DNA from: a virus
Taxonomy: Duplodnaviria > Heunggongvirae > Uroviricota > Caudoviricetes
Direction: 5' to 3' (one strand)
Virus record (IMG/VR): IMGVR_UViG_2880378312_000013
DNA: 54,893 nucleotides
Position 1 is the first letter of the stretch, and each line of letters begins with the position of its first letter. The notes under the pieces are model-generated. The model saw nothing but the letters and a program-made list of their open reading frames with translations, was not told where the DNA came from and did not search any database. The position numbers were made by a program, and so were the translations under genes. Positions 2,533 through 39,572 of this stretch are shown here, piece by piece.

Positions 2533-2664
2533 ACATCATCTAACAATGAATTAGATGCATTTTCCGCTGACGCCTTAGCATATAACTTTTAAATTTTATC
2601 GATATATATTTTGAGATAATTTCCTGTAGCGGATTTAAGACCGGCACAGCCGGTCTTAGGTCAG

Positions 2665-5055
2665 TTATTTCGCTGCAAACTCATCGCATTTTGGCAACCA
2701 GTCAGCATTGCTTTCCTCTCTTAGGGCCAGATTAGTCTGCATTCCTTGATTGGTCCGTCGTTTCTCATACTGCAGCCCATATTCCTTGAGCATTAACGGT
2801 AGCCCCTTGCCAAACATGGTCAGACTGAGCGTATTTTTATAGCCGTTAGCCTCCATGTAGACCAGATAGGCATGGTAGAGGTAAGTTCGAGGCTGACGTG
2901 GAACAATATTAGCGTTCCCCATAAACATGCCCGTGGTGTCAGGTAGGACCTCAAGGTAGCCGCAAAAATCAAAAGCTGAATCAGCATCACGTTTGATGGT
3001 GAGCGCTTCATCGGAGTTCTGCTGTGACTGAAGCAATGTCCTGGCACTCATTGGGTCGCTGAAACGCTGCATAAGCTGGCGAACAATCACCGCTAGCTCA
3101 CTGGCAATTTTCTCTTTGAGCTGGGTATCGCGTTCCTCCGGGGCTATCTGGTCGGGGAAATGCAGGATCACCCTTCGGCGTGAAACTCCACCACTACGAT
3201 CAGTGAAGCGCATCGGATTATTGTTCACAGCCAGGATGACCGCCGGGATGTGGGTTGAATAGGCGTTCTGATATTTGGGATCAACGGATACCGCATCGCC
3301 GCCAGTGATGGCTTTTAGTCCGGCCCCGTCACCGCTCCACTTTTCCTGGTCGGGAAGTCGAATCAGTGAAAAACCTATTAACGCAGCTCGTTCTCTTGGC
3401 GACTCAAGCATTTCAATGGTTGCCGAGGTCGCGTTATCTTCACCCGCCAGCATGGTTGCTATTTCAGCAAGAATACTCTTTCCACTTCCGCCAGGGCCAG
3501 TGACCTCCAGAAACAGCTGCCAGTCATAACGGTTAGCCAGCACCATAAACAATGCAGCCAGAATAATGTCCCGTTTTTCAGGATTAAAACCTGCGGCACG
3601 ATCCAGCCAGCGCCAGAATGCCGGGGCATGGGTTTCCAGTGACTCACCGTCAACGGGCTGCGTGTAATCCACCTCGCACAGCGTACGTAACCAGTGCTTC
3701 TTATCGTGCGGGCTGAACAATCCTGTCCGGGTATCGAGCACACCGTTGCGAAATCCGATAAGTTGCCGCGCCGGATTCTGCTGTTGCGGAACGATCAGTT
3801 TGAGGGTTTCCACGAGAGACGCAATTTTCGCGGATGAAAAAGGTGCGTCGAGGCGCTGAAACAGCGCAGCGACATCACGGGCAAAATCGGCGTAATAGAT
3901 AACTTTCCAGGCCCCCGCCTCATAGCGTGAAAGGAGCTGCCCGTTCGGGTCTACTGCCAGTGAATTTTTATAGTGATCCACTACCCTCTGCGCTTTTTCG
4001 CTGACGCTCAGCGCGGTAAATTCAGCTTCGCTCATTGTGTCGAAGGGGCTGGCAACAGCTGGTTTTATTACTTCATGAATTGCATGCCGGGTGGCTTCTT
4101 CGCCGTTTTGCGTGAATGCATCGTTCCAGTCACCAAACACAGGCGGGAGCGCCATTGTGCAATTGCAGGCCCCGGTAACAGCTGCGCCCCTTGTTTGCCC
4201 CGCACCGTTGAGATCGCGGTCAGCAGCAATAATTATCTGGTGCGTTGGGTACTCACTGCAGGCAATGCTCGCCAGGGAAAGGAAATTGACGGACGAAAAG
4301 GCCACCATGACAGCATCGCCAGTCAGATAGTTGATAGTAAGTGCGGTGGCATATCCTTCCGCTATCCAGAGCCGTTTGGCTGCTTTGGCAGTACCTTCAA
4401 CCAGGTAAAAGGCATTCTTAACCTGACCGCCTTTAAGGAAGCATTTGCCCCCATTAGCGTTGATTAACTGCAGATTTACCAGCTCTCCATCTGCATACAA
4501 TGGAACGACAAGATCTCCCGCGCGAAATGCCACACCACCGACTTTATGCATAGCGGTTAATTCCCGGCAAGGCAGTGCAGGAAACCCTTTACTCGTCAGA
4601 TAGGCATTGCCAGTGGTCTGGCGGGACTTATCAAACAAACGGGCAGCCAGCACTGCTGCAGCTTTTCTCCCGTCCTCTTTTTCAGGAGAACCAGATTCAA
4701 GCATTCCCTGAGATACTGGCAGCAGGTTTCCGATAATGCCGTTTATTCTGTCTGCCGCTTCACTAATGCCTACATCCAGTACTTTACTTACAAGCGCCAG
4801 GCCATCACCTGCCCCGCACTGGTTACAGAACCACGTTCCCCGCCCTTCCTGGTCATCAAATCGAAAGCGGTCTTTCCCGGCACAGACCGGGCAGGGCTGG
4901 TGCCGATTTTTCAGTACATTTACGCCCAGCGCAGGTAAAATTCTTGACCAGTGACCCCGAGCTGCTTTCTCAGCCTGGCTAACTTTCATTCCTGACATTG
5001 TGCGGCCCTCCTTAGTGCAGCGCTGGTTTGTTGAGGTGACGGGAACAAAGTTCAT
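2665..5055 (-). CDS. P4 alpha-like primase/helicase (zinc-binding primase + D5-type NTPase)
   Basis: CxxC...CxxC zinc motif ([10 protein letters not shown]...CNQCGAGDG) and P-loop GPGGSGKS; true start may be the internal Met (MSGMKVSQ) about 57 nt downstream of the ORF start. Confidence 0.8.
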
Positions 5056-5335
5056 CCATGACCGTCATTCCGAGCAGTGAGAGAACCGGACAGGCTTTAA
5101 GCGGCCCCGACTCCATCAGATCCGAAAGCAACGCGCAGGCAATTTCCAGCCCTCTTTGCTGCCCATGCTGGCGCAGATAGAACCCTTCCAGCTCGCGGGC
5201 TATGGCATCTTCAAGTTCAGCGAGCGTCAGGCCGGAATAACGTTCCTGATGATTGCTTAGAGCCAGCCAGGCACAGGCAACGGCACGGCGATACAGAGCG
5301 GCACGAAGTGCCAGAAGAGATTCACAGCATATCAT
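5012..5335 (-). CDS. hypothetical protein (satellite early region)
   Basis: 107-aa ORF co-oriented and nearly contiguous with the primase gene. Confidence 0.4.
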
Positions 5336-5556
5336 CAGGCCACCTCCGCATTCATCAGGTCGTCATGGCAGCGTTGCACCACTCCATCCAGTTGCTCTGT
5401 CATCAGATAAATGAGGGAAACCAGTTGTTCGCATTGGGCACCTGCTGGCTTTTCATAACAGTCCTGCAGGGCTGCCATGCCAGTTACATACTCACCCACA
5501 TTGCGTAAATGTTTCAGCCTTACAACATCGTCGTAGGAAATCTCAAACTGGTTCAT
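5335..5556 (-). CDS. hypothetical protein (satellite early region)
   Basis: 73-aa ORF in operon-like arrangement. Confidence 0.4.
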
Positions 5557-6110
5557 AGCGTCACCTCCCCGGCAGGCAGCCGTGCAGAAAGGGAGAGTAC
5601 ATAATCTCGGACTAGCAAACGGCGCGCGGAACGCTCATCGCAGGAGACAGTGCGAAGCATACAGATGCGGGGGTGAGTGTCAGCACGGCGGATTGCGGCA
5701 AACACAAAGACATATTGCGGGTGTGACGGGGTGAGGATTGTAGCCATGATGGCAGCCTCCAATAAGTAGCGGTTATTGCTACCACCGGAAACGCCAATTT
5801 CACTGGTGGCAGCCCGAACGGGGTTGGCGTAACCGGCCTTATTGGAAACCGGCCAGCCCGAAGGCTGCCCCGCCCGGACTACCATTATCTCGATAGAACC
5901 ATGGTGTAAGCATAAACACCACAGCCCTGAAAATGGTTGTGCCTGAGCTACGACGTAAAAAAAGACGCAAGGGGCGTCAATTGTCGCCAATAAGTTATAC
6001 GGAACGCCAATTCCGGCTGCCGATTTTGCGACAGCGGAAAAACTATACCTGGAAATGACGACAGTAAGCAAGCCAGAATAAAGGTATTTAATGTATGCAG
6101 GTATCATCAT
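5553..6110 (-). CDS. hypothetical protein; real gene probably only the 3' third
   Basis: 185-aa ORF whose N-terminal part is low-complexity; a likely internal start at [11 protein letters not shown] would give about 64 aa. Confidence 0.3.
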
Positions 6111-6367
6111 GCATCACATCCCCGCCCACGGGCGCTGATGCGGTCCGCCATCCATGCGCTGACCTCAGACTGTGCCCAGGCGACATTTTTACCGCCAAGC
6201 GGGATCTGCTTCGGAAACGCATCGCGGCTGATCAGGTCGTAAACGGTCGAACGGGACAACCCGCATAAGTGCATCACCTCAGGCAGGCGTAAAAATCGCT
6301 CATGATGGTTCGATACAGGAAATAATGGCGCAGCAGGAGCTGGCGCAGACACAGAAATATTACGCAT
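6107..6367 (-). CDS. AlpA-family phage transcriptional regulator
   Basis: Small HTH protein with [20 protein letters not shown] motif characteristic of AlpA/prophage regulatory proteins. Confidence 0.7.
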
Positions 6368-7212
6368 TTATCTACCCTCTTTAATTTCCACAACAGTCCG
6401 GATGAATTTATCCGGGTTCAGGTAGTTCCTTATTATGTGTATATAAACCACCTGCGCACGCATTTTTTATTTAGCGTCACATATTGATTTTATGGAATTT
6501 AAAGCCCGATTAAACCATATAAAATGACATAATAAATACCATGCCTGCGGACTATAAATACAGGAGCATTAATAGGAACTACCATTCACCCAGGGTTTAC
6601 TATCCTATGGGTCATTGCACCTGATAGTGCTAACCCCACCGCCAATACAGCAAGGCAGTACAACTTCTACACGAGGCCTTGCATTGCAGGCCCCAATTTC
6701 CGGGCATATTTTTGAATCGCATCCAACTTATAAACATTGGGCCTGCATAAAAACCTTGATATTAAATAACATCACCTTAAATCGTAAAATATATCCGAAT
6801 GAATCCATAAAGAACCGGACAGATCTAGTTTTATAAAAATCAGTATGAAATGCAACACCATGGCCAGAGGCGAAAATGTTATTCCCCGGCAAAAACATGC
6901 AGTCTATTTATGTGCCTGTTGAATACTCCTGAATAAGGGTGAATAGTGGTGAGGAGCAAAAAACAAATAGCTACGAGGAATAAAAAAACCACCCATTATG
7001 AAAAAATACCATAAATAATTTTATTCCCATGTGAACAGTTATGAACAGTCGATGAATACTGCCATGCCAACCCTTCACCTTATAACCTTCTGTATTACCT
7101 ATTTTTTTTACCTAAGTGAATAGTAGTGAATAGTTAAGGTAAGTCTGAAACAGCCTTAGTTAAACGAGGCCTTTTCTGGCTAGCCAAAAGAGGTCCGGGG
7201 CGGTTCAGTCTT

Positions 7213-7230
7213 TGTCTTGTCGCTCGCACA
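7213..7230 (+). promoter_or_regulatory. TGT-N12-ACA dyad, candidate Ogr/delta-dependent late promoter element
   Basis: tgtcttgtcgctcgcaca about 70-90 nt upstream of the sid-like start; matches the P2/P4 late-promoter activator-site pattern. Confidence 0.45.
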
Positions 7231-7300
7231 ATGGCGTTCAATGGCAGCTTTGTATGCATCACAGCACAATTGACACCACGACAAACCACTAGGTGCTGAC

Positions 7301-8053
7301 ATGACAATCCCAGAACAGAACAATAACCCGATCGTTGAAATTTCTATCCCTGTTTCGACGCAACAGGCGCTTGAGAAAGTGAATGCCACCAAATCTGCAT
7401 GGCTTGAAGCACGTCGTCAGCAAAAAGCGGCAGCGGATAATATTGCGACAATCCGCCAGCGCCGCGCTGAAATGGAAGCCACGACGAACGCCCTGAATGA
7501 GGAGTGGCGCACGCTATTTCGTGAAAGTCAGGGCGTAGTCTCAAAGGAAATGAAAAAACTGCGCACGGAAATTGCGCTGGGACGAGAAACGCTTGAGGAT
7601 TTTGATGAGCTGCTGGCGGCTCAGGAAAGCGAAAATGCACTTTTGCCGCAGGAGGCTGCGGAATTAGCCGGAAAGTATATCCACGCGCACGACACCCTTG
7701 TGGGTATTCGCGCAAAACAAATCTGGGAAGATTTTATGCAGTCGCATGGAAAAGCACTAATCCAGACACTAAGCCTGCTCAAATCAACAATGGGCAGGGA
7801 AGCCAGCGCAGTTGTCGGTGTGGTGCATTCAGTTAATGACCCGGACACACTGCTGAAAGATTTTATTCATAAACATATCACCAGACCGGCTCTGACTAAC
7901 GATGCGATGCCCGAACAGGACCCCGTGTTTAAACTGGCGGGAGTTGCCCCGGATTATGCGGCCCGTCTGGATTTCAGTAATAAACTCTCTCCAGCAGCTA
8001 TGCATAAAATGAAGGTTCGTCAGGAACGTGCTGAGAAGGAGAAAGCAGTATGA
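7301..8053 (+). CDS. Sid-like capsid size determination protein (putative)
   Basis: 250-aa helical/coiled-coil protein first in a sid-psu-delta-like operon; similarity to P4 Sid is from recollection only. Confidence 0.45.
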   Translation: MTIPEQNNNPIVEISIPVSTQQALEKVNATKSAWLEARRQQKAAADNIATIRQRRAEMEATTNALNEEWRTLFRESQGVVSKEMKKLRTEIALGRETLEDFDELLAAQESENALLPQEAAELAGKYIHAHDTLVGIRAKQIWEDFMQSHGKALIQTLSLLKSTMGREASAVVGVVHSVNDPDTLLKDFIHKHITRPALTNDAMPEQDPVFKLAGVAPDYAARLDFSNKLSPAAMHKMKVRQERAEKEKAV

Positions 8054-8601
8054 TGGCCCGAGTCACTCCAGACCAAGCGCTTATCAGTTTTAGAAATGCC
8101 CGTATTCTGTGGGCTGGACATAGTGAGAGCCGAAAAGCCGTTGAACAACAGATAGAATCACTCCTCACTGCCATGGAAAAACCAGCAGATTATGCTCGAC
8201 AGCTCGAATTACAGCGGGAACATCTGGATGTGCTGAAATGGCAAATTAACTGTGCTGCGCGCGAATGCATTTACTCGCAGCATCAACTGATGGAGGCCTG
8301 CACAGAAGACGCTCTCAGCAATTTTATGCAGGCGAATGGAGCAGCCCTGACATCTGCACTGGCTCCGTTCCTGAAGGGGCGCGGAGGGGTTGACGTTGCG
8401 TCCCGTATATTACGCAATGCTCTGGTTCGCCAGCTGGCAATAACACCGCCTGAAATTGCCGGGGATTATCGTATGATTCTGGATGAATCCGGTGTGATGC
8501 CTGACCCCATGATGGTTCGTGATTGCCAGAGCTCTTACACCCCTGCACAACAACTGCGCTTTCAGCAACGTCTGGATTACATTAACGGCATGCAGGAGTA
8601 A
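8050..8601 (+). CDS. Psu-like polarity suppression protein (putative)
   Basis: 183 aa, overlaps the upstream gene by 4 nt; segment FMQANGAALTSALAPFL resembles P4 Psu as I recall it. Confidence 0.5.
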   Translation: MMARVTPDQALISFRNARILWAGHSESRKAVEQQIESLLTAMEKPADYARQLELQREHLDVLKWQINCAARECIYSQHQLMEACTEDALSNFMQANGAALTSALAPFLKGRGGVDVASRILRNALVRQLAITPPEIAGDYRMILDESGVMPDPMMVRDCQSSYTPAQQLRFQQRLDYINGMQE

Positions 8602-8606
8602 TATTA

Positions 8607-8879
8607 ATGGCACTTAAATGTCCCGAATGCGGTACGACGGCACACGCCAGAACCTCCGCCTATGAAGCACCATCGGTTAAACGCTCATGGTATCAGTGCC
8701 AGAATCTTGAATGTTCCTACACATTTACCGCACTGGAAAGTGTGGATACGATAATCATGAAGCCCCGGCGCAATGAACAGGAATCAGAGAAAGCACAAAT
8801 GCCGGAAAAACAACAGCAAACTCTCAATCGCTATGGCTCCGCGTCAAAGCTGTCAAGCCGTCAGCAAATTCCTGTCTGA
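8607..8879 (+). CDS. Ogr/Delta-family zinc-finger late-gene activator
   Basis: CPECG...HARTS...YQCQNLECSYTF pattern matches the Ogr/Delta C4 zinc finger. Confidence 0.75.
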   Translation: MALKCPECGTTAHARTSAYEAPSVKRSWYQCQNLECSYTFTALESVDTIIMKPRRNEQESEKAQMPEKQQQTLNRYGSASKLSSRQQIPV

Positions 8880-8900
8880 TTAGCAAAAAAAGCCCACGTA

Positions 8901-8927
8901 ATCCCGGTCCAGTACTGGGATTTTTTA
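8901..8927 (+). terminator. possible intrinsic terminator after the delta-like gene
   Basis: Short hairpin (atccc...gggat around palindrome ccagtactgg) followed by a T6 run; weak stem. Confidence 0.35.
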
Positions 8928-9288
8928 CGCCTTTTCCCTGGCTGGCCTGAGAGCGCATGAGTGCATGTCTATAGCGCATGAAAACGCATGATTCTCATGC
9001 ACCATTTTTGACGCGAAAGCCCTTGTGTGGTGGCTTCTGAGACGATTTGCGGAATGCATGAAAACCAGTCTGTTAAGCGAAGCGAGCAGGCGTGGGGGGC
9101 TGCGCGCGCTAAGGGGTTAGATTATAAAATATCAAACGCCGGTGAGATCCATTATTGTGGAACCACCCGAAGGAAGTGTAGAGGCGAAAGTACCCAAAAT
9201 AATTTTGCAAATTATTTAGAAATGAACTGAGCGCTCGAAACGAAATATAATTTCGAGCACCCCAATTAGCAGTTATATTTTTAATGTA

Positions 9289-9855
9289 TTAAACAGGATA
9301 AAAACCAGAGCTTCCATTCTTATTTAAGTTATGGATTTTATTTGCATCATTAATTTTTATTTGGAACGTCGGACCTTTATTCTCAAGAATTACAATCTGG
9401 AAATTATAGTCCCTTTTGATTAATGCGTGATAAAATGAATCACTGAGACTGACGCTATTAACATCCGATAGAGAACCCCCTCTATCTTTATCAAAGTGCG
9501 TCACTAATGGACTATCAAGCACAACAAATCCAATGAATGGATTCCCTTTTCTTGATAAAAATTCCGCAAAGCAAATGGTAAATATAGCATGCATTACTGC
9601 ACGGGTACCTTTACCAAACATTCCTCGGCGTTTCCCATTGATATTAAAGTCATATGTATCTTCGTCAAATCGCACTTTGTTATCTTTAGAATTTTCAAAA
9701 TTTATATCATTCAAAAAGTCTTGCATCGCTATTTCTATATCATACAAATCAGCTACTGTTAAGGAGTCAAAGTCCTCGGCGGAGTATTTAAGTTCGTCAA
9801 CATCATCTTCTTTATCTTGTAATGAAGATAGAATGCTATGTTTTGTGTGATCCAT
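9289..9855 (-). CDS. C-terminal head segment of an SMC-like ABC ATPase (Walker B-like region)
   Basis: 188 aa; hydrophobic strand followed by Asp (FIGFVVLDSPL) resembling Walker B but without the canonical Glu; start overlaps the upstream stop as TAATG. Confidence 0.55.
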   Translation of the reverse strand: MDHTKHSILSSLQDKEDDVDELKYSAEDFDSLTVADLYDIEIAMQDFLNDINFENSKDNKVRFDEDTYDFNINGKRRGMFGKGTRAVMHAIFTICFAEFLSRKGNPFIGFVVLDSPLVTHFDKDRGGSLSDVNSVSLSDSFYHALIKRDYNFQIVILENKGPTFQIKINDANKIHNLNKNGSSGFYPV

Positions 9856-10445
9856 TAAAAGATTGTCTTTATATTCATAAAGTGATTCAAGAGATGAATG
9901 TATTGTTTTATATTTTTATCTTCTAACGTCTTAAAATCACTTTTTTCTGATTGATAAATTTCATTAACATCATTTTTTCTTAACATAATTAATTCATGTT
10001 CGCGAACATTAGATCCGATTGATTCAATTAATCCTTTCAGCTGGCTTTTGATTTTCAATTTTTCTGCATTACACGACAAAAAACAATCATCATATGATAT
10101 TTCATTTTCTTTTTTTTGCGGTGTATTACAGAACTCACAATAAATATCTGCAAAATTATTTAAATAGAAATTCGCCTGTGATACAACATCTATTCTTTGT
10201 AGATCTATAAAGTATTGGTCTTTAAGAAGACTAAATCTTTCAATGAGTAATGATAAGTATTTTTCCCTGTCACTGATTGAATATAATTCATCACTTAACT
10301 CTTTTAATAATTGCTTCTTATCATCAAGTGCATCAACAATACCTTTCAATATATCTTTCGATGATTCAATATCTTGCTCTACTTTCTCAAGTTCTCTTGA
10401 AACAATGACTTGATCATATTCAGGATAAATTAATTGCGCTTTCAA
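9855..10445 (-). CDS. coiled-coil middle segment of the SMC-like ABC ATPase
   Basis: 196 aa, highly charged heptad-like sequence, TTG start; in the same frame as the upstream ORF and separated from it by a single TAA. Confidence 0.55.
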   Translation of the reverse strand: MKAQLIYPEYDQVIVSRELEKVEQDIESSKDILKGIVDALDDKKQLLKELSDELYSISDREKYLSLLIERFSLLKDQYFIDLQRIDVVSQANFYLNNFADIYCEFCNTPQKKENEISYDDCFLSCNAEKLKIKSQLKGLIESIGSNVREHELIMLRKNDVNEIYQSEKSDFKTLEDKNIKQYIHLLNHFMNIKTIF

Positions 10446-10475
10446 TTCCTCATAAATATTTGCAATTTGATTTTT

Positions 10476-11135
10476 TTAAAAATATCTTGCTTTTTTATTT
10501 GGTTTTTCTGCTAAGGAGTTAGTATCATCTCTCTGAGTTAAAAGGAATTTAAATTCAGACTTTCTTTTTGTCTCCTCGCTAGGAATATCAGAAAGAATTA
10601 ACGACTTCTCAGTTAACACTCTTAATTCATCAATACAAAAAAATTCAAAAACATTATTAAGATTAAATTTATGAAGAGTATTACTTAAGTTTGTTCTTAC
10701 TTTAGCCTCTTTGAAATTCAACCTACCATAAAAGTATGATGAAAAACTCTTTTTAGACGAAGCACTTTTGGAAAAAACCATCAACAGATTAGCTTCACTA
10801 ACATTTTCAATGCTCGAATCATATAATCTGTAATGGGCGCTATCCTGAAGAGACCTCTCAATTGTCATTACCCTACCTTGAAAATTAAATTCCAGATAGG
10901 CTAAATCATAACCTTGAGCATGATCGATATCTTTATTTTTTAGTTTTTCACTCCCTAATAAATATCGAATCAAATAATATATGTATGTTTTTCCAGAGTC
11001 AGAACCACCATATAAAATAGTCAATTTAGAACCAAATTCAATTATAGCATCTAATTTATTGAATCCGGTTACCTTTATTTTTCTGAACGTAAAAAAATTG
11101 TCATTCATAATTAAATTCCATATCATATTTGCCAA
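10476..11135 (-). CDS. N-terminal head segment of the SMC-like ABC ATPase (Walker A)
   Basis: FRKIKVTGFNKLDAIIEFGSKLTILYGGSDSGKTYI matches the N-terminal strand plus P-loop of SMC/Rad50/RecF-like ATPases; likely true start at MNDNFF. Confidence 0.65.
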   Translation of the reverse strand: MANMIWNLIMNDNFFTFRKIKVTGFNKLDAIIEFGSKLTILYGGSDSGKTYIYYLIRYLLGSEKLKNKDIDHAQGYDLAYLEFNFQGRVMTIERSLQDSAHYRLYDSSIENVSEANLLMVFSKSASSKKSFSSYFYGRLNFKEAKVRTNLSNTLHKFNLNNVFEFFCIDELRVLTEKSLILSDIPSEETKRKSEFKFLLTQRDDTNSLAEKPNKKARYF

Positions 11136-11574
11136 TTTTATTTTTTATAATTGATTGCAACTGCTCATCAGGAATATCACTATATAACTTAACCACCAAA
11201 TTTATATTATGCTCCATCTGCGCAACATATTCATTATGTAGAGAATTTGTAAATGCATATGTTTTTTCAGAAGCTTTATATACAAAACCACGATGTGTAT
11301 AAATTTTTGAGGCTAGTTCATAGCCTTGCAACAAAGCCAATGATTCTAAAACAATCTCTCGTTTTAGGGCTAACTGAGCATCTCTACGGGGTATTGGAGG
11401 ATGAAGACTAATCTCTTCAGGTAAAAAATCCTTAAGATTTACTAAAATAAAATCAAAACAAATAAGCCGTTCAAGGCTTAATGAAGAAGGATAAATAGCG
11501 ACGAGCACTTTCGCCATTCGACATGCCACTTCTAAACTTGAATTATAAATTCTAACCATTATCTCACCGTCCAA
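11101..11574 (-). CDS. small helical protein, candidate middle component of a three-gene defence cassette
   Basis: 157 aa, TTG start, overlaps both neighbours; position matches LmuC/ABC-3C middle components. Confidence 0.45.
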   Translation of the reverse strand: MDGEIMVRIYNSSLEVACRMAKVLVAIYPSSLSLERLICFDFILVNLKDFLPEEISLHPPIPRRDAQLALKREIVLESLALLQGYELASKIYTHRGFVYKASEKTYAFTNSLHNEYVAQMEHNINLVVKLYSDIPDEQLQSIIKNKIGKYDMEFNYE

Positions 11575-12176
11575 ATTACTTCACCATCATTAACCAAATG
11601 ATGGCATATTCCTTTTTTATCATTTGCTTCACATATTTTTGATAGTACTGAATGTGCAATTGGTGTCAGAACAGCCTGCTTCAAGACTGCATTACACCTA
11701 ATAAATGCATAATTATGGTCTTCATAAAAGACGGGTTCAATTGAAGATGAAATGTAACATTTCAATGCTTTGAATACATCATCTTTAAATACTTCGCGGA
11801 CAAAAACCTCAAGCGAAGATGCAAAATAAAAATCATTTCTACTATTATTAAAGTGTCGTCTGTATGGATCATCAAGCTCTAAGAAAGAACTATAAGTTTT
11901 ATTTCCATGCTCTGAATAGGCTTGAAGCAGTGCATTAACATATACAGACTCTTTTTTTGAATTGTATGTTGGAATTTCATTTGGAGGGATTCTCACGACA
12001 TACAGCTCGTTAAAGTACTTAAAATAAAGGTGTGTATTTGCAATATCATTTAAAATCAATGATAAGGGTAGAGAGTAAAAAATACTAAAATCAAAATCCT
12101 CAATATATTTTTTTATTTCATCATCTAATGGAATATCAATCTTTTTAGTTATTTTTTTGAAATTGCTGAATCCCAT
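11559..12176 (-). CDS. C-terminal part of the candidate effector protein (frameshifted relative to the upstream ORF)
   Basis: 205 aa; overlaps the upstream ORF by 28 nt in another frame across an A7 tract. Confidence 0.5.
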   Translation of the reverse strand: MGFSNFKKITKKIDIPLDDEIKKYIEDFDFSIFYSLPLSLILNDIANTHLYFKYFNELYVVRIPPNEIPTYNSKKESVYVNALLQAYSEHGNKTYSSFLELDDPYRRHFNNSRNDFYFASSLEVFVREVFKDDVFKALKCYISSSIEPVFYEDHNYAFIRCNAVLKQAVLTPIAHSVLSKICEANDKKGICHHLVNDGEVIWTVR

Positions 12177-12565
12177 GAATCAAGGACTGCTTTTTTAAGC
12201 TCGTTTTTATTTTTCAATAAATTAGAAAATGTAGTAGATAAATCATAGGGTGCCACAAAAAAGTACTTCTGAGGGATGGGATAATCACCATTCAGAGTAA
12301 AATAGATAAGTTTTCCAAACTCAACTACAACATCAGAGAACCCTAAACTTTTTTTGTACAGTTTGCATTGATAATTATCCCAAGAATAACCTTCTACGTT
12401 AGGATCCGATTTATATCCAACAACGTCTCTACCTTTATCTCCAGCTCCTCCCAAACGTTCGCTCCACGGGTAATCATCTGATTTACAGACAATAAGCCAA
12501 TCATGGACAAATACCTCCCATTGTTCATCATCCCATGTCAATATTTCCGAAAGTGGTTGAGACAC
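12149..12565 (-). CDS. N-terminal part of the candidate effector, PD-(D/E)xK / Mrr-like nuclease-fold motifs
   Basis: 138 aa, GTG start; GAGDKGRDVVGY followed by YQCK resembles the D...(E/Q)xK core of restriction-endonuclease-like folds; assignment is tentative. Confidence 0.45.
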   Translation of the reverse strand: MSQPLSEILTWDDEQWEVFVHDWLIVCKSDDYPWSERLGGAGDKGRDVVGYKSDPNVEGYSWDNYQCKLYKKSLGFSDVVVEFGKLIYFTLNGDYPIPQKYFFVAPYDLSTTFSNLLKNKNELKKAVLDSWDSAISKK

Positions 12566-12568
12566 AAA

Positions 12569-13801
12569 TTAACTCCTTTTTAGTCTTTCAAATATCAAAT
12601 TACTGTACCAGTCCATCATAGACTTCCTTCCACTAAAATATTGAGCATGGTTATAAGTCCCCCTAATAGAATTTTTATCTACATGAGCCAACTGGATTTC
12701 AATCCAAGCACTCTCAAAACCTTGCTCATGCAGGATTGTAGAAAGGGTATGACGAAAACCATGTCCAGTGACTTTTCCTCCATACCCAATACGCTTAATG
12801 GCTTGATTTATACTCGCTTCGCTCATTGGCCTATTCGGATCGTTCCGCCCTGGAAAAACATAACGATAGTTCCCTGTCATGATCTTGAGTTCATTGAGTA
12901 AATCTACCGCTTGAGATGATAAGGGCACAAGATGTGGCCTACGCATTTTCATCCTTTCAGCAGGAATTTCCCAAATAGCGTTATCCAGATCAAATTCTTG
13001 CCATAATGCCGCGCGTAATTCGATGGTTCTCACACCCGTAATCATCAGTAATTTCGTGGCTATCTGGACAAGCTTACTCCCGGAGTAACCCTCTAAGGCA
13101 CGTAGAAAATCAGGTATCTCATCAGCTTTTAGGAATGGGAAATGATTGGATTGGTGTACTTCGAGAGCGCTGGAGAGATCAGCCGCAGGATTGTACTCCG
13201 CCCTACCCGTTGCAATTGCGTAGCGAAACACTTCGGAGCAACGCTGCCGCACTTTGCGCATTTTCTCCAACGCACCACGTTTCTCAATTTTACGCAGAAC
13301 GTTCAGCAGCTCTAGCGGTTTAATCTCTCCCACAGGCCTTGTTCCGACATAAGGAAAAATGTCGTTCTTAAACGCTTCCATGATGTCTGATGCATATCCC
13401 GCCGACCATTTAGCAGATTTAAGTTGATGCCACTCTCTGGCTATCTTTTCGAAGGCGTTCTCTGACTCTGTTTGCATAGCTAGCTTTTGCTCTTTTCGAA
13501 CCTCACTAGGGTTCTTTCCTTCTGCCACAAGTTTTCGAGCTTCATCACGACGGGAACGAGCATCGGCAAGGGTGATCGTTGGGTAAACACCAAGCGAGAT
13601 CATTTTGGGTTTGCCGGCATAGCGATAGCGGAACCGCCAACTCTTGCTTCCATTAGGTTCTATAAGTAATGACAACCCTAGCCCATCTCCAAATGTATAG
13701 GCTTTAGCTTCAGGCTTAGCGCGGCGAATCTGCATATCGTTTAAAGGCATGTGTATAGGAATCCAGACCGAACAGGAACATATACACAATCCTATACACA
13801 T
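12569..13801 (-). CDS. P4-type tyrosine integrase
   Basis: 410-aa ORF with C-terminal catalytic region (HGFRHT...Y); sits next to the partial tRNA-Thr repeat, co-oriented with it; probable start at MPLNDMQ. Confidence 0.9.
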   Translation of the reverse strand: MCIGLCICSCSVWIPIHMPLNDMQIRRAKPEAKAYTFGDGLGLSLLIEPNGSKSWRFRYRYAGKPKMISLGVYPTITLADARSRRDEARKLVAEGKNPSEVRKEQKLAMQTESENAFEKIAREWHQLKSAKWSAGYASDIMEAFKNDIFPYVGTRPVGEIKPLELLNVLRKIEKRGALEKMRKVRQRCSEVFRYAIATGRAEYNPAADLSSALEVHQSNHFPFLKADEIPDFLRALEGYSGSKLVQIATKLLMITGVRTIELRAALWQEFDLDNAIWEIPAERMKMRRPHLVPLSSQAVDLLNELKIMTGNYRYVFPGRNDPNRPMSEASINQAIKRIGYGGKVTGHGFRHTLSTILHEQGFESAWIEIQLAHVDKNSIRGTYNHAQYFSGRKSMMDWYSNLIFERLKRS

Positions 13802-14233: not shown

Positions 14234-14671
14234 ATCGCCCTGGACTGTTGCGATCGTGAAGCCATAGACTGGGCCGCAAGCACGGGAGGTTACGATAAAG
14301 CGACAGTGCAGGATGTCATGTTAGGAGCGATAGAAAAACGCTTTGGCGATAAAGTACCGGAACAGTCCATCCAGTGGCTGACAGATAACGGTTCAGCGTA
14401 TAGAGCGCATGAAACACGGCAGTTCGCCAGAGAGTTGAATCTGGAGCCCTGCACAACGGCAATCAGCAGTCCTCAGAGTAATGGAATTGCAGAAAGGTTC
14501 GTGAAAACGATGAAGGAAGACTATATCGCGTTCATGCCGAAACCGAATGTAAGAACGGCATTGCATAATCTTGCAGTGGCGATCGAACATTACAATGAAA
14601 ACCATCCGCACAGTGCGTTGGGTTATCGCTCTCCGCGAGAATATCGACGTCAGCGGGTAACGTTAACTTAA
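14234..14671 (+). pseudogene. IS2-like (IS3 family) transposase orfB remnant
   Basis: Translation [23 protein letters not shown]...[14 protein letters not shown]...[14 protein letters not shown] matches the integrase-core C-terminus of IS2 InsD as I recall it; in-frame stop upstream and no orfA. Confidence 0.6.
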
Positions 14672-14712: not shown

Positions 14713-15465
14713 TCAGATTCCCTGGTGAGTAAGAATTTTACTTTCTGAACTCCTCTGAGAGTATTGACTTGGAGAAACACCAAAATAACGTCTAAATACA
14801 TAAGTAAAGTATGAGACACTGGCATAACCACAGACCTTAGCTACTTTACTAATAGGATAACAACGAGTGCTGAGTAAATATTCAGCCATTTGCATCCTCT
14901 CATCAAGTATGATCTTACTGAATGATACCCCCTCTTCTTTCAATTTCCTCTTTAGTAAACTTTCGCTGAGATATAATCTTGATGATATATCCTTAAGACG
15001 CCATGGTGCAGATAAATCCGTATGAATAATCGTTTTAACTTTAGCCCCTGTGCTTTTCAAACATCCAAACAGAAATACTCCAAATTGTTTTTCAGAAGAA
15101 AATGCAGAGAGACATGTAAAAGCAATAGACTCATCAAAAATTTCTATGTATTCAGCACAGTGATTAGCCCAACTAATTAATCCTTTAATTAAACTGAAGT
15201 CAGCAAAGTTTATTTTTAAATAAGATGGATATTCCCTACAATCAGAAATATCCCTTAAGTTATTAGCTTTCAAATAGCGACTAATAAACTCAGCGCCAAA
15301 ATCCGCCACTATCACTCTTTCAGGATATGTCAGGAAAAAATCTCTAGAGCTAGAGTCGACAAGTACAGATGAACCTCTCTCCAGAAACACACTCTCTTTT
15401 CCGAAATAAACATCAAAGGACTCCAAAATCAATATAACTGAACATGTAGTTGCCATATCATCCAC
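14713..15465 (-). CDS. AraC-family transcriptional regulator
   Basis: 250 aa, C-terminal AraC-type HTH (ISKVAKVCGYASVSYFTYVFRRYFGVSPSQY); gene is markedly AT-rich. Confidence 0.8.
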   Translation of the reverse strand: MDDMATTCSVILILESFDVYFGKESVFLERGSSVLVDSSSRDFFLTYPERVIVADFGAEFISRYLKANNLRDISDCREYPSYLKINFADFSLIKGLISWANHCAEYIEIFDESIAFTCLSAFSSEKQFGVFLFGCLKSTGAKVKTIIHTDLSAPWRLKDISSRLYLSESLLKRKLKEEGVSFSKIILDERMQMAEYLLSTRCYPISKVAKVCGYASVSYFTYVFRRYFGVSPSQYSQRSSESKILTHQGI

Positions 15466-16038
15466 CCAATTTAACTGAAACCAGGATGAAGTATATGTAT
15501 ATAAAGTTCACTTTGCCAAACTTCAGTATAAAAAACCACTAAAAATAGGGTGTGATAAAAAATACCGTAACAATAAAGCAAAGGATTATAAATTCCGTTA
15601 CAGTTACAAATGATACTCAAGAAACAATTCCTTAGGAAAAACTTATTTACAGCCAATAAGTAAGACACTTATATGATATCAAGTTTTCATAAAACATAAC
15701 TAGGCTAAATAGCTGCGCCTAATACCGCTACACTTTTGCCAGCCCATGTTTGCCTCCGGGTATTGACCCCTTCTCTACGCAACTTCAGTTCCCACCACCA
15801 ACTTTGCGGCAGCTTTGTAGGATCAATGTCTAAAAGAATAATGGTGACCGATAAGAAAACGACTGAATAACTGCAGATTTTCGCTCGAAACCTTCCTGTC
15901 AGATCCATAGCGAATCAAGTGCTGAATGTCACAGTATCGAACAGAAAACAGTGACGATCTAACCCTTCAAGAATATTCTACGATTGTTCTGTTTAGGAAA
16001 AGCAAGGCGGGAAGTCGGGAGATAAGTCATTGATAAAG

Positions 16039-16104
16039 TGGCGGAGAGAGGGGGATTTGCCCCCCCGGTAGAGTTGCCCCTACTCCGGTTTTCGAGACCG
16101 GTCC
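16039..16104 (-). other. partial tRNA-Ser(CGA)-like 3' fragment (relic att site)
   Basis: Reverse complement reads ggaccggtctcgaaaaccggagtaggggcaactctaccggggg..caaatccccctctctccgcca, the anticodon-to-3'-end part of a serU-type tRNA; 5' third absent. Confidence 0.6.
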
Positions 16105-16184
16105 AATCATCAAACGAAACATAAAATTAATTCACATTATGAGGAAAAGTATCTTTTTTGTACTATGTAAATTCAAAGACTTAG

Positions 16185-17054
<870 letters not shown>

Positions 17055-17114
17055 GTCTTTAAGTGATAAGCATAAACCGCAGCACGATCTTCTTGCATAC
17101 GACGTGCTACGGTT

Positions 17115-17714
17115 TCATTTATCTCCGACCGGAAACTTCTTATACAGTGTCGATATACCAACATCATAGATGATCGCCACCTTTTGGCGAGGAACGCCTG
17201 ATGCAATTAATCGCCCGGCCTGCGCCCATTGTTCTGGTGTAAGTTTGGGACGACGTCCACCAATTCGTCCCTGTGCGCGAGCTGCTTCCAGTCCAGCTTT
17301 TGTTCGTTCAACAATCAGTTCACGCTCCATTTCAGCCAGGGCACCCATCACATGAAAGAAAAAGCGCCCCATTGGGGTACTGGTATCAATTGAATCCGTC
17401 AGACTACGAAAGTTGATGCCTCGTTCGCGCAACTCCTCCACCAGCACGACAAGATGCCGCATACTGCGCCCCAGTCGGTCCAGTTTCCAGACCACCAGCG
17501 TGTCACCTGCCGATAATGTCCTGAGCAGCTTTTTCAGTCCTGGTCTGTCGGACTTTGTACCGCTTATCTTGTCTTCAAAAATCAGCTCACATCCTGCACA
17601 CTCCAGCGCATTACGCTGTAATTCCGTATTCTGGTTATTTGTTGATACGCGGACATAGCCAATAAGCATGAGCATTCCCCTGAGTAAAAACCGGGGATGA
17701 TGCCAGTTAGCCAT
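17115..17714 (-). CDS. serine DNA invertase (Gin/Pin/Hin/Cin family)
   Basis: MLIGYVRVSTNNQNTELQ...LVVWKLDRLGRS...GRIGGRRPKLT are hallmark resolvase/invertase motifs; real start at the internal MLIGYV. Confidence 0.9.
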   Translation of the reverse strand: MANWHHPRFLLRGMLMLIGYVRVSTNNQNTELQRNALECAGCELIFEDKISGTKSDRPGLKKLLRTLSAGDTLVVWKLDRLGRSMRHLVVLVEELRERGINFRSLTDSIDTSTPMGRFFFHVMGALAEMERELIVERTKAGLEAARAQGRIGGRRPKLTPEQWAQAGRLIASGVPRQKVAIIYDVGISTLYKKFPVGDK

Positions 17715-18218
17715 AATCTCTGCATTTTCTTAAACGTTGGTTTGGGAGAAGGCTCTGCATTACCTGTTGGTGTGCCTGTTCCATGGCCTTCAGCCACACC
17801 GCCAACAGGCTGGCTGAAATGCAACGGTGCGGCTTTTTCTGCTGAAGAATACCCGGAACTGGCAAAGGCTTATCCGACAAATAAATTGCCTGATTTACGT
17901 GGTGAGTTTATTCGTGGCTGGGATGACGGGCGCGGTATTGATGCAGGACGTGTTTTATTGAGCATTCAGACAGGGATGCTGGAAAAACACCGCCATATTG
18001 TTGTTGCCAATGATGGTTACGACACAAAAGATGAATGGGAACTGGCTACGATTTTCAAAAAGACATACACACAAGGACGGGGACTTGATGCCACAAATAC
18101 AGGAGGGAGTCTGATCCCATCACCGACACTTCATTCACGAGGGAGTATCGGTAATACTGGCGGGAGTGAAACCCGTCCACGAAATATTGCATTTAACTAT
18201 ATCGTGAGGGCTGCATAA
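17697..18218 (+). CDS. alternative tail fibre C-terminal segment (silent orientation, no own start)
   Basis: Encodes LPVGVPVPWPSATPPTGWLKCNGAAFS...; begins at the crossover site and would fuse to the constant fibre N-terminus after inversion. Confidence 0.7.
   Translation: MMPVSHNLCIFLNVGLGEGSALPVGVPVPWPSATPPTGWLKCNGAAFSAEEYPELAKAYPTNKLPDLRGEFIRGWDDGRGIDAGRVLLSIQTGMLEKHRHIVVANDGYDTKDEWELATIFKKTYTQGRGLDATNTGGSLIPSPTLHSRGSIGNTGGSETRPRNIAFNYIVRAA
17731..17751. repeat. invertase crossover site (right inverted repeat)
   Basis: aaacgttggtttgggagaagg is the inverse complement, with one mismatch, of cttctcccaaaccaaggtttt at 19615-19635. Confidence 0.55.
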
Positions 18219-18820
18219 TGGATAACGCCGTATTAAATAGCGAGCTTATTGCCACGAAGGCGGGGAATATTACCGTCTATAACTATGATGGTAAAACTCG
18301 GGAATATATTTCTACTTCAAATGAATATCTTGCCATTGGTGTCGGTATCCCTGCATATTCCTGTCTGGATGAACCTGGTATACATAAGGCGGGTTATGCT
18401 ATCTGCCGTTCGATGGATTTAAACTCATGGGAATATGTGCCAGACCATCGCGGTGAAATCGTCTATAACACCGAAACGGGAGACGCCAAAGAAATCACAG
18501 CTCCGGGTGATTATCCTGAAAATACAACCACTATCGCCCCGTTAACGCCATTCGATAAATGGGATGGTGAAAAATGGGTGACAGATACTGAGGCACAACA
18601 CGGTGCCGCAGTAGAAGCGGCAGAAGCACAGCGCCAGTCACTGATTGATGCAGCAATGGCTTCCATCAGTCTGATTCAACTGAAATTGCAGGCCGGACGT
18701 AAACCGACGCAGGCAGAAACAACCAGACTTAACGCTGTGCTGGATTACATTGACGCGGTGACGGCAACAGATACCAGCACCGCGCCGGATGTCATCTGGC
18801 CTGAACTGCCGGAGGCGTAG
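18218..18820 (+). CDS. tail fibre assembly protein (alternative orientation)
   Basis: 200 aa; C-terminal region (AVLDYIDAVTATDTSTAPDVIWPELPEA) parallels the other assembly protein on the opposite strand. Confidence 0.7.
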   Translation: MDNAVLNSELIATKAGNITVYNYDGKTREYISTSNEYLAIGVGIPAYSCLDEPGIHKAGYAICRSMDLNSWEYVPDHRGEIVYNTETGDAKEITAPGDYPENTTTIAPLTPFDKWDGEKWVTDTEAQHGAAVEAAEAQRQSLIDAAMASISLIQLKLQAGRKPTQAETTRLNAVLDYIDAVTATDTSTAPDVIWPELPEA

Positions 18821-19244
18821 GCCATTCAATATCTGGCGCACTGGAGGTATCAACCAGCTCCAGTGCATCCAGATAATCCAGCCACAAATTATATTGCGCC
18901 AGTTCCTCACCTTTCAGACGACCAATAGCGGCTTTACCGGGCCATTGTTTACTGTTCATGTATTCGTTGGCCTGGTTAATTAGTAGCTGTCTTTCTGATT
19001 CAGTAATTTCAATAAGTTCTTCATGCGTGGGTGGAGGAATATCTGCCCACGCAGGCAGCCCATCATCTCCGGCAATACGGATTTTTCCTTGTGGCGGTTC
19101 AGCCATAAACTCACTGATAATATTTTGATTTACTTCCTTAGCGTCTGATAAATCCCATCCCTCTGATTTATATTTATCAATCATATCCACAGGGAAAAAA
19201 GCATTATGCCTTGCGCTATAAACATATTCATTCATATAAATCAC
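18792..19244 (-). CDS. tail fibre assembly protein (expressed orientation)
   Basis: 150 aa immediately downstream of the fibre gene; ends LWLDYLDALELVDTSSAPDIEWPTPP. Confidence 0.7.
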   Translation of the reverse strand: MIYMNEYVYSARHNAFFPVDMIDKYKSEGWDLSDAKEVNQNIISEFMAEPPQGKIRIAGDDGLPAWADIPPPTHEELIEITESERQLLINQANEYMNSKQWPGKAAIGRLKGEELAQYNLWLDYLDALELVDTSSAPDIEWPTPPAVQAR

Positions 19245-19255
19245 CCTGAATAAAA

Positions 19256-19918
19256 TTACTCACCAACAGCCCACCAACTGTAATTCATCGATACCGTGTC
19301 GCTGGTTGATGACGTTCTGTAAGCAGAATTAAAGCCGGTTAACGTTGGGCCTTCTGCAGTCATCACGAACCCTCGCCCAGCGCCTAAAGGCGCACCGCCA
19401 TCACCAGAATGAGTAAGCATGGCGCAGTCCGCTTTTTTGGAGAAAGGGATGCTGAATGTAATTCTCATTGTTTGCGTCGATAATGTCGGCGTAACCGCAC
19501 CACGACCATATTGCAGGATTTTCCCGTTGGGTAATTTCATCCATCCATCACCACTGGCAAAAGAGGCCATGTCCGGTATCTGATTTTCCCCTGTCCCCAC
19601 ATCCCGTTTTGCCGCTTCTCCCAAACCAAGGTTTTCGAGAGCCGTTTGCACAGTGCCATCCGATTTGATATCGCCAAACGGATTCTTGCGGCTTAACAGC
19701 AGCGCGCGAAGTGCGGTAAGTAACTGGTCGTGCCGCCCCTTCTCCAGGCTGGCACCGGATGCCTCCACCACGCTGCAAAGTTCCTCCTGCAACATGTCAA
19801 AGTAGTCATCATCCAGATCGGTGGCAGGCGTGCCGGTCTGGGGGTTACCACGGGTAAAACCGTTCTTACCCGCGCCGAACTTATCCTTCTGCGCGGTTTT
19901 CGTGTCTATACGATGCAT
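19256..19918 (-). CDS. tail fibre protein (constant N-terminus fused to variable C-terminus)
   Basis: 220 aa; the crossover site lies inside the gene at the codons for NLGLGE, as in Mu S / e14 fibre genes. Confidence 0.7.
19615..19635. repeat. invertase crossover site (left inverted repeat, inside the fibre gene)
   Basis: cttctcccaaaccaaggtttt; partner at 17731-17751. Confidence 0.55.
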
Positions 19919-19921
19919 GGA

Positions 19922-20506
19922 TTACTCCGGATATTTAAAAATTACGTAGGTTTGCGACGGGCAGAGTTTGTTAAGCACACACTCGACAACGGTGTCACCC
20001 CAGATACGCAGTGCGGAATCACAGGGATCGCCACATGTCATCCAGGTGGAGTTGGTGGTGGCTGGCATGTTGACCTGCCAGTAATACCGCCATTCCGGCG
20101 CATTCACCGCGTCAGTACAGGCCGATGAGCAGGTGAAAGTGCTTTTGTCGTATCGCGTGATGGTGGCATCTGGTCTGCCCAGGGCAGCAAGCTGTGCAAG
20201 ATAAAAATCCTCGTTGATGCCGCCCGCCAGGTTAACCTTCGCATCCAGCCGTTGCTGACGCTGGCGAAGGGTCTGCGTTCCCGCCGGAATACATTCATCC
20301 GGCAGACCGCACAGACGCTCCCAGCGGTTTATCAGTTCAGTGGTGGTGCGAGGATCCAGCTCCCGCATCAGGGCATCCGCACGCTGATGAACACGGGTTA
20401 ATGACGGTGCCGCACCGGCAATCGCCGGATCGCTGGCTGACCACGCCGGACCGGGCGGCAACAGTGCCGATAACAGGCGGATGTAATCATCGTTTGTCAC
20501 GTCCAT
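19922..20506 (-). CDS. Mu gp48-like tail/baseplate protein
   Basis: Position between baseplate J and fibre genes; 194 aa. Confidence 0.55.
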
Positions 20507-21555
20507 GAAATCGTCCCCAGTACCGCCAGTTCGTTTTTCGCAATGGAGATATTGTCCACCGGTGCAAGCAACTGATGGCTGTATTCCCCGTTCGCACCGG
20601 AAATCGCCTCACTGATACGCGATACCTTGAGTTCTCCCTGCGGATAACCATCACGCAGCAGGAACGAACGCAACTCCGCGGTAATGGCAGCCCGTATTTC
20701 CGGTGTGTCCGGCGTCACGCGGATATGAAAATCCACTTTATGCGCCACCGGCCTGAATACATACAAATCAGAGCCTGCCACCGGGGCCAGTGGCTCAATG
20801 TGTTGTCTTGCCGCCGTTTCCGTTGATTCTTCCGGAATGGGATTAATCAGGTCACTGCTGGCAATCATCACACCGACAGTTCCCGTTCCCATCCAGTGAC
20901 GGTATGTCCATGCGCGGGTAATGCCGGGCACTTCTTTAGCCCAGACAACATAGTCCCCGTCAGCCCCGCCCTGAGGCGTCCAGTAATACCGCTCAATGAC
21001 GCGGGCGCGCCACGTTTCCAGATCTTCAGTATCGAATCCGCCAGTCAGGGTATCTGCAACACCGGAAGACGGCAGACCATTCACCGGCGTGACCAGGATT
21101 AATGCCGTACCGTCGTCAGCGTTACCGACCGCGCCTGCACTTGAGCAGGCGATCGGCACGCGCAGGACACCACCGGAGCTGGTTGCATCAGCAGTTGCCG
21201 TGTACTGAACCAGGTCATCGCGCTGAATCACGCTCCCGGCGGTCACCTTCAGGCCATCGCTGACACCTTCCCAGCGCATATACCCGCTGGCAGCCGTGGC
21301 CCCCTTGCGCGGACACCGTTTCATCGCAGCATGTCGCGCCAGCCAGGACTCATCGCACAGGTCAGGCAGCATGTTCATTGCCAGATAATCGATGTAACCG
21401 TAAACCGTATGCAGCGCCGCCGCATACACCTTTGCCCGCACGTCTTCATCCATGCGCCGGAGCGTGTCGCTGACGTCCAGCCTGGCGAATAAATCGTTAC
21501 GGAGCATACTGATATTTTCTGCCAGCGTCGGGCGCTGAAATTCACTGTCCGCCAT
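20497..21555 (-). CDS. baseplate J-like protein
   Basis: 352 aa in conserved Mu-like baseplate gene order. Confidence 0.65.
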
Positions 21556-37000: not shown

Positions 37001-37522
37001 TACTCCAATGAAGAAGCTACCGACATAGCCTCCTCCATTCGTCGTGAAACTATTTTCATCTACCCAGTAATGAATTCTTTGAAGAGTTGTAATCAATACA
37101 ACTCGCTAATGGAGAGGCTTGTCTCACACGTGAGACAAGCTTCCTGTTTGATTTACTGGACACTATAGAAGGACAGAATGCCTTCCTCACTCGAATCACA
37201 TCAATTAAGGAGGTTCAACATGTTTCATTCCACAAGTCATCAGGCTGTAATTATGGCAGCATCAGTTTGTGCCACAGACCTTTTCCGCTTCACTTTGAGC
37301 CTGATTCATTTCTACCTGACCGGCTCGCCTCTATCTTTTTAATCCCCGCTTTATCCAAATTGCATTGCCAGAATGCCGACAACAGACTGACATTCAAATC
37401 CTGACTACCTCCAATAGTCTGACCGTACACCTATATAGTTTTAATTTTCATCAATCCATTTAACTATCGTTTAATTGTTGTCACATAGGATTCTGCCGTT
37501 TTTAACAATGCAGGATAATAAG

Positions 37523-37816
37523 ATGAAAAAAATGTTATTTTCTGCCGCTCTGGCAATGCTTATTACAGGATGTGCTCAACAGACGTTTACTGTTGGAAAC
37601 AAACCGACAGCAGTAACACCAAAGGAAACCATCACCCATCATTTCTTCGTTTCGGGAATTGGACAGGAGAAAACTGTTGATGCAGCCAAAATTTGTGGCG
37701 GCGCAGAAAATGTGGTTAAAACAGAAACCCAGCAAACATTCGTAAATGGATTGCTCGGTTTTATTACTTTAGGCATTTATACTCCGCTGGAAGCGCGGGT
37801 GTATTGCTCACAATAA
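37523..37816 (+). CDS. bor: Bor lipoprotein (serum-resistance family)
   Basis: MKKMLFSAALAMLITGCAQQTF... with lipobox LITGC; near-identical to lambda Bor as I recall it; opposite strand to neighbours. Confidence 0.85.
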   Translation: MKKMLFSAALAMLITGCAQQTFTVGNKPTAVTPKETITHHFFVSGIGQEKTVDAAKICGGAENVVKTETQQTFVNGLLGFITLGIYTPLEARVYCSQ

Positions 37817-37847
37817 TTGCATGAGTTGCCCATCGATATGGGCAGCG

Positions 37848-39257: not shown

Positions 39258-39572
39258 TTAAACACCTAACGCCCGACGCCCCAGCGCCATTGCTGCTTTT
39301 ATTGTGGAACCGAATCCCATAAAGAAATCAGCAACCAGATCACCAGGTCGACTACTGGCATTGATTATTTGCCTGAGCATATCCGCCGGTTTCTCGCACG
39401 GATGTTTACCCGGGTAGAACTGAACGGGCTTATGCGTCCTGACATCGGTATAAGGCACGGAGACTGATACGGAGAAATAGCGCCGGTGAGATTTAAACTC
39501 ATCCAGCAATTCAGAAGATTTGCAATTCAGTGAATCATGAGATACCACCAACTGGTGGTAGGATTGTCTCAA
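39258..39572 (-). pseudogene. DNA methyltransferase fragment (N6/N4 MTase C-terminal piece)
   Basis: 104 aa containing HPCEKPADMLRQII and DLVADFFMGFGSTIKAA motifs but lacking the rest of the enzyme. Confidence 0.6.

Follow-up and report, generated by a model that had tools for sequence, protein, structure and literature searches.

Does the 1.9-kb segment beside the DNA invertase gene of IMG/VR virus record IMGVR_UViG_2880378312_000013 still invert, and if so, which enzyme turns it and what does the inversion change? The window, meaning the whole stretch of 54,893 nucleotides (nt) that was analysed, had earlier been read from its letters as holding an invertible tail fibre segment (hereafter the original prediction). 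It was identified as chromosomal DNA of the Escherichia coli O157:H7 type, many genomes of this type matching it at 100%, and the locus is very probably the P-segment/Pin tail fibre switch of a full-length prophage of the e14 family situated at thrW on this chromosome.

Crossover sites and fibre cassettes

Two inverted repeats of about 21 bp, identical at 19 of 20 positions, had been claimed to enclose some 1.9 kb. This agreed with the inverted repeat that was found (I1), which has arms of 20 nt at 17732-17751 and 19615-19634 that are 95% complementary (19/20) and are separated by a spacer of 1863 nt. I1 proved to be the common part of two 26-bp sites that flank the 1.9-kb segment in inverted orientation:

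17725-17750, crossover site proximal to the invertase gene (pix): TTTTCTTAAACG-TT-GGTTTGGGAGAA, core dinucleotide at 17737-17738
19616-19641, crossover site within the expressed fibre gene: TTCTCCCAAACC-AA-GGTTTTCGAGAG, core dinucleotide at 19628-19629, with ENLGLGE encoded on the minus strand

Each of these sites consists of two half-sites of 12 bp that enclose a 2-bp core, with 21 of the 26 positions agreeing between the two, and their cores, TT and AA, are complementary, as inverted sites require. Both could be aligned with the gix site of Mu and the cix site of P1, including the invariant AAAC..GGT positions. When a 19-nt site pattern was searched with up to three mismatches allowed, exactly two matches were obtained in the 54.9-kb window, compared with 0.01 in shuffled sequences. 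A third crossover site, which would have made the locus a multi-inversion shufflon, was ruled out, as pattern searches of the window gave the two sites only. A direct repeat match (D3, 16087-16102) was also rejected as a crossover site, as it forms the anticodon-arm portion of a fragment resembling tRNA-Ser.

The sites observed here connect a constant fibre part with two cassettes, downstream of two further tail genes:

19630-19918, minus strand: constant N-terminus of the tail fibre (Sc), approximately 100 amino acids (aa) long, joined to either cassette
19256-19615, minus strand: expressed variable C-terminus of the fibre (Sv), Pfam Gp53-like_C (3.1e-11)
18792-19244 (RefSeq start at 19236), minus strand: chaperone of the expressed cassette, Pfam Caudo_TAP (2e-31)
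17752-18218, plus strand: silent alternative C-terminus of the fibre (Sv'), Pfam Collar (1.2e-15)
18218-18820, plus strand: tfaE, chaperone of the silent cassette, Pfam Caudo_TAP (4.8e-32)
19922-20506, minus strand: YmfQ, Mu gp48-like, just upstream of the fibre gene, Pfam Phage_Mu_Gp48 (1.5e-25)
20497-21555, minus strand: baseplate J/gp47, upstream of YmfQ, Pfam Baseplate_J (2.7e-53)

The expectation of alternative fibre C-termini with their assembly proteins on opposite strands was therefore borne out, Gp53-like_C with Caudo_TAP lying on the minus strand and Collar with Caudo_TAP on the plus strand, so that a Caudo_TAP gene stands behind each of the two fibre cassettes. In the state of the window, the fibre gene was found to extend over 19256-19918 on the minus strand and to encode 220 aa. 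When 17739-19627 was flipped computationally at the two core dinucleotides, the constant part came to be in frame with the Collar cassette, resulting in a fibre of 256 aa, and this flipped-state product is annotated in strain 117 as a tail fiber protein (WP_000554706.1). These two in-frame products, each followed by its cognate chaperone, confirm that the constant part can be joined to either variable part. The claim that a site lies in the fibre gene at the NLGLGE codons holds for the site itself but not for its side, as the site in question is the right-hand one (19616-19641) and not the left. The left site (17725-17750) was found beside the invertase gene, where the silent cassette encodes NVGLGE. 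The resulting gene order, that of baseplate J, gp48, S, U, U', S' and invertase, is Mu-like.

Orientation of the segment among complete genomes

A set of 5,426 complete E. coli genomes was searched by megablast with the window form and the flipped form of the locus (3001 nt each). For the window form, 28 perfect matches over the 3001 nt (5542 bits) were obtained, with 76 genomes showing colinear coverage of at least 80%, while the flipped form gave 26 perfect matches, with 83 genomes at this coverage. The original prediction had named a single orientation as the result that would speak against a switch; what was found were both orientations at about equal frequency, including among near-identical cattle isolates (strains 113-150). 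Of these isolates, whose genome lengths agree to within a few bases and in which the locus has the same coordinate, ten possess the window form and nine the flipped one.

Precise inversion was observed directly in these related genomes. Comparison of strain 117 to the window over 23,001 nt showed differences confined to 17752-19614, which were reduced to zero once 17739-19627 had been flipped, and strain 120 was identical to the window over 3,000 aligned nt (17001-20000). After inversion, the lone mismatch of the outer half-sites (G at 17736; C in the right site, in inverted register) was still found on its original side, and the exchange is thereby located around the core, between 17736 and 17751. 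Perfect matches in both orientations, together with the exact inversion seen in strain 117, indicate that the switch is active. Many of the matching genomes were found to have one megablast place for the query, indicating that no close second copy of the invertase gene (pin) is present in them.

Relative to the window, strain HB6 (NZ_CP040305.1) was found to carry 49 small deletions and strain Z1835 (NZ_CP062700.1) about ten, all of them within the segment and none in its flanks. These deletions are of 1-3 bases, and the cassette genes concerned are labelled 'frameshifted' by PGAP. Variants with 'stfP' fragments in these two strains were rejected as other cassette arrangements, as they consist of the same sequence with deletions within the segment. 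Clusters of assembly errors at invertible segments, caused by reads of mixed orientation, have been described for strain EC958 (PMC4134206), and the deletions of HB6 and Z1835 look like a polishing artefact of such mixed-orientation reads and not like real pseudogenes.

The result for the present locus is in line with that for the P segment of e14, for which both orientations have been confirmed by polymerase chain reaction (PCR) and quantitative PCR (qPCR), and for which PinE-dependent inversion at the same repeats has been published (PMC4272514, PMC12529663). Long-read assemblies have likewise revealed inversions of prophage tail genes in O157:H7 and in ST131 (PMC8190617, PMC4134206). As the segment flips freely in O157:H7 cultures, differences in its orientation between isolates are without phylogenetic signal. 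Furthermore, frameshift clusters limited to the segment are probably polishing artefacts, and the 'extra' short fibre coding sequences (CDSs) represent silent cassettes and not genes of their own. The value of the locus thus lies mainly in the caution that it advises for genome comparison, annotation and assembly, and little in discovery.

The invertase, its proposed mechanism and rival explanations

Two features relevant to the enzyme were identified just outside the left crossover site:

17115-17669, minus strand: serine DNA invertase of the pinE type, 184 aa, pointing away from the segment
17580-17651, minus strand: presumed recombinational enhancer (Fis-binding region) at nt 19-90 of the invertase gene, placed by homology

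The invertase was found to possess the Pfam domains Resolvase (1.2e-51) and HTH_7 (5.7e-13), and it is annotated as pinE in RefSeq (WP_000905124.1). A longer open reading frame (ORF) reaches 17714 from an upstream ATG, a start that RefSeq does not use. The protein shares 95% aa identity with PinE of K-12, 84% with Cin of P1 and 79% with Gin of Mu, and it matched the structures of Gin (3UJ3/4M6F; 1e-93), its catalytic Ser9 being aligned (VRVST), in agreement with its earlier assignment to the Gin/Pin family. Residues Q150, R153 and L154 of Pin were found to align with Q151, R154 and L155 of Hin (Hin DNA-binding domain, 1HCR), and K46, K47 and R50 correspond, by our own numbering offset, to positions 47, 48 and 51 of Hin, which are basic residues of helix B. 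The former three residues of Hin are known to contact Fis, and the roles of both these and the basic residues have been described (PMC3798978). The invertase carries residues that set invertases dependent on Fis and an enhancer apart from resolvases.

The enhancer was placed by comparison to the record of P1, which annotates the 72-bp enhancer of Cin at nt 19-90 of cin. The corresponding stretch of the window (17651-17580) is identical to it at 56 of 72 nt (78%), and the blocks GTATCAACAAAT and GCAGGATG within this region were found to be invariant across pin, pinE, gin and cin.

If the locus works as those of Hin, Gin and Cin do, dimers of PinE would bind the two inverted 26-bp sites and would be activated by the Fis-bound enhancer located in the 5' end of their own gene. 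An invertasome would be assembled with this Fis-bound enhancer on supercoiled DNA, as is known from classical work and from PMC3798978 for invertases of the Hin/Gin family, and double-strand cleavage at the core, leaving 2-nt overhangs, would be expected from the same family. Half of the complex would then rotate by 180 degrees (subunit rotation), with religation causing the 1889 bp between the cores to be turned around. Dependence on Fis and the enhancer, as well as this cleavage chemistry, is thus ascribed to the locus by family analogy, with the adjacent PinE as the presumed responsible enzyme. Throughout, the constant 5' part of the fibre gene (about 100 codons, ending in NLGLGE) would remain behind the late tail operon. 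In the window state it would be followed by the gp53-like C-terminus and then the chaperone of the latter, resulting in the 220-aa fibre, and in the flipped state by the Collar-domain C-terminus and then tfaE, resulting in the 256-aa fibre. A population of lysogens would consequently carry both receptor-binding tips, which homology suggests may change host range, and the switch would act as a means of bet-hedging.

Several observations weigh against this account. Synonymous conservation across pin, pinE, gin and cin was not in excess in the enhancer compared to the rest of the gene (6/19 versus 19/101, p=0.23), and because of this the enhancer is proposed by homology only. At codon 12 (17634-17636), the invertase possesses Asn12 in place of the Asp12 of PinE, Gin and Cin, a position that, judging from the sequence of gamma-delta resolvase, is not known to be conserved in resolvases. 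This substitution seems to be tolerated, as the protein carrying it (WP_000905124.1) was found in genomes of both orientations. A scan for consensus promoters around pin and the leader ORF beside it gave nothing at the expected place. Moreover, PinQ, which is 38% identical to PinE, has been shown to invert the e14 segment in K-12 (PMC12529663), and distant invertases encoded elsewhere in the genome could also contribute in trans here.

The leader ORF gives rise to a different account of what the switch is for. It lies beside pin at 17697-17751 on the plus strand, with ATG codons at 17697 and 17700 (MMPVSHNLCIFLNVGLGE), and runs into the left site, so that leader and silent cassette together form a free-standing ORF of 172-173 aa that is annotated by RefSeq. 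The switch may be real while its main present role is not in the host range of the virion but in providing such a free-standing protein, with the leader joined to the cassette that happens to face it, which would block receptors against other phages in the manner proposed for StfE2 of e14 against T2, although we consider this unlikely. The leader ORF is present in both states, being part of a PGAP CDS of 172 aa in the window form and of 136 aa in the flipped form, and e14 of K-12 has a homologous leader that forms the start of the StfE2 chimera. The inverted state of e14 is reported to produce StfE2 and to block adsorption of T2 (PMC12529663), and this was counted in favour of a defensive role. 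However, no promoter-like site was found upstream of the leader ORF in the consensus scan, and the sole Shine-Dalgarno-like run (GGGG) is situated 0-3 nt from the ATG codons of the leader, which is too close. Furthermore, the cassette that would form the equivalent of StfE2 here diverges from StfP of K-12 past the site, and the T2 result is therefore not transferable to this locus. A role in the virion remains plausible, because the prophage looks complete, with genes for integrase, repressor, replication, lysis, head and tail. It is likewise improbable that the switch of the O157:H7 lineage acts in addition, by analogy with the claim for StfE2 of e14, as an orientation-dependent anti-phage device in which the leader ORF would express the off-fibre cassette as a receptor mask. 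If this were true, the set of excluded phages would differ from that of e14, due to the gp53-like cassette being different.

As to the enzyme, Gin, Cin, Pin and Hin are known to cross-complement one another. Inversion might accordingly be carried out by another invertase acting in trans, or occur by homologous recombination between the repeats, with the local pin being a passenger or impaired by Asn12; this was judged to be very unlikely. In addition to the D12N substitution in the local Pin, such a view is favoured by the inversion of the e14 segment by PinQ, which belongs to another prophage (PMC12529663), and by prophage Phi4 of EC958, which inverts though its invertase is truncated (PMC4134206). 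Against it, the pin gene was found to be intact with regard to Ser9, the helix-turn-helix and the residues that contact Fis, and the same WP_000905124.1 is encoded in genomes of both orientations that have one megablast place only. With respect to homologous recombination, the repeats share just 15 bp of perfect identity, which is too short for efficient recombination by RecA and makes this route unlikely, and the position of the half-site mismatch puts the exchange at 17736-17751, around the core. Inversion by the adjacent PinE is hence the explanation preferred here.

That the locus is a fossil which no longer inverts, with the orientation differences between genomes being assembly artefacts, is extremely unlikely: some assemblies of the region are visibly full of errors, but the restriction of these errors to the segment itself suggests that the culture sequenced contained both orientations, the exact flip is matched without a single difference over 3001 nt by 26 independent complete genomes (and over 23 kb by one), and the orthologous segment of e14 was found in both orientations by PCR and qPCR (PMC4272514, PMC12529663).

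The prophage and its comparison with known systems

The element that carries the switch is a full-length lambdoid prophage of approximately 37 kb, located beside the tRNA-Thr gene thrW. Its genes were identified to include those for an integrase, repressor, replication proteins, antiterminator, lysis proteins, a terminase of the P27 type, a head of the HK97 type and a contractile tail of the Mu type. Mosaic cassettes such as those of the switch are common to P2-like, SfIV-like and HK97-like phages. A gene for a serum-survival lipoprotein of the iss/bor type was observed between the terminase and lysis genes, and the prophage also carries a truncated DNA methyltransferase gene (window approximately 37520-37820 and 39260-39570). 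Just downstream of pin there is a LEM-3-like GIY-YIG gene (16230-17054, plus strand), which occupies the slot of the restriction enzyme McrA in e14 and represents a different cargo gene of the nuclease type.

A tRNA-Ser(CGA)-like 3' half was observed at 16030-16117 on the minus strand, for which ARAGORN gave no call, and a weak antisense match to Rfam RF04351 (16042-16093) lies within it. This fragment, which gave rise to the direct repeat that matches the right crossover site by chance, is probably a remnant of an attachment site at the pin-side end of the prophage. A P4-like satellite adjoins the prophage (window approximately 2600-13800), possessing integrase, primase-helicase, Psu, ogr/delta and Icd-like genes. 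It also contains a cluster annotated as an 'ABC-three component system' along with an AAA ATPase as candidate defence cargo. The satellite is followed by an IS3 transposase fragment (14306-14671) and then by an AraC regulator (14713-15465).

Tail fibre switches driven by DNA invertases, such as those of Mu (Gin), P1 (Cin) and e14 (Pin), are textbook systems. The original prediction of a switch of the Mu G segment type is correct with regard to gene order, sites, invertase and in-frame joining of the fibre parts, while the locus is more exactly an orthologue of the P segment and PinE of e14. The gene order in e14 of K-12 (ymfQ-stfP-tfaP-tfaE-stfE-pinE) is the order found here, and the 19-nt cores of both of its sites, those proximal to pinE and in stfP, are identical to the cores here. 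Compared with the published repeats of the e14 P segment, TTGGTTTGGGAGAAGG and CCTTCTCCCAAACCAA (PMC12529663), the left repeat of the window is identical and the right one differs at the outermost base only. Residues 1-101 of e14 StfP share 100% aa identity with the constant fibre part, and the stretch from ymfQ to Sc (window 20600-19606) shares 99.5% nt identity with e14, nucleotide similarity ending at 19606. The tfaE/Collar cassette shares 89-90% nt identity (88.6% for the tfaE region), and both elements show a 29-bp overlap of the two tfa genes and possess the short leader ORF beside pin. In contrast, stfP and tfaP of e14 show no DNA similarity past the site, and weak protein similarity, to the gp53-like cassette and its chaperone, and the spacing between the repeats is 1797 bp in e14 but 1863 bp here. 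Moreover, e14 is a defective 15-kb remnant at icd with mcrA, whereas the element described here is a full-length prophage at thrW with the GIY-YIG gene instead. On the basis of these sequence comparisons, the element is a relative of e14 and not e14 itself, and, being intact and of full length where e14 is defective, it could be used for tests of host range function.

The G segment of Mu shares the order baseplate J, gp48, S(c), Sv, U, U', S'v and invertase, with gin also pointing away from the segment, and the gix sites possess the same 26-bp architecture, although their core is TC/GA compared to TT/AA here. Mu differs further in its 3-kb segment, its 504-aa fibre and its nature as a transposing phage, the fibre here being shorter and the prophage lambdoid with an integrase. 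For P1, the outer half-site TTCTCTTAAACC of cix and its core AA closely resemble the sites described here, but cin points toward the segment with cixL at the 3' end of cin, and the segment (4.2 kb) and S fibre (approximately 988 aa) are of different size. Prophages Phi1, Phi2 and Phi4 of EC958 also have segments of 2-3 kb that invert between 26-bp sites next to a DNA invertase, the two orientations being mixed within one culture (PMC4134206); unlike here, their fibres contain Phage_fibre_2 repeats in the constant part and they reside in P2-like or other prophages.

Among O157:H7 outbreak isolates, a 1739-bp inversion of two tail genes has been reported in a compound prophage at thrW ('prophage 2'; PMC8190617), and this is probably the locus described here. 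The Pin/P-segment switch of e14 dates from the 1980s, as cited in PMC4272514 and PMC12529663, and the system of the window is thus an already known one, namely this switch in an intact relative of e14 in which one cassette has been exchanged.

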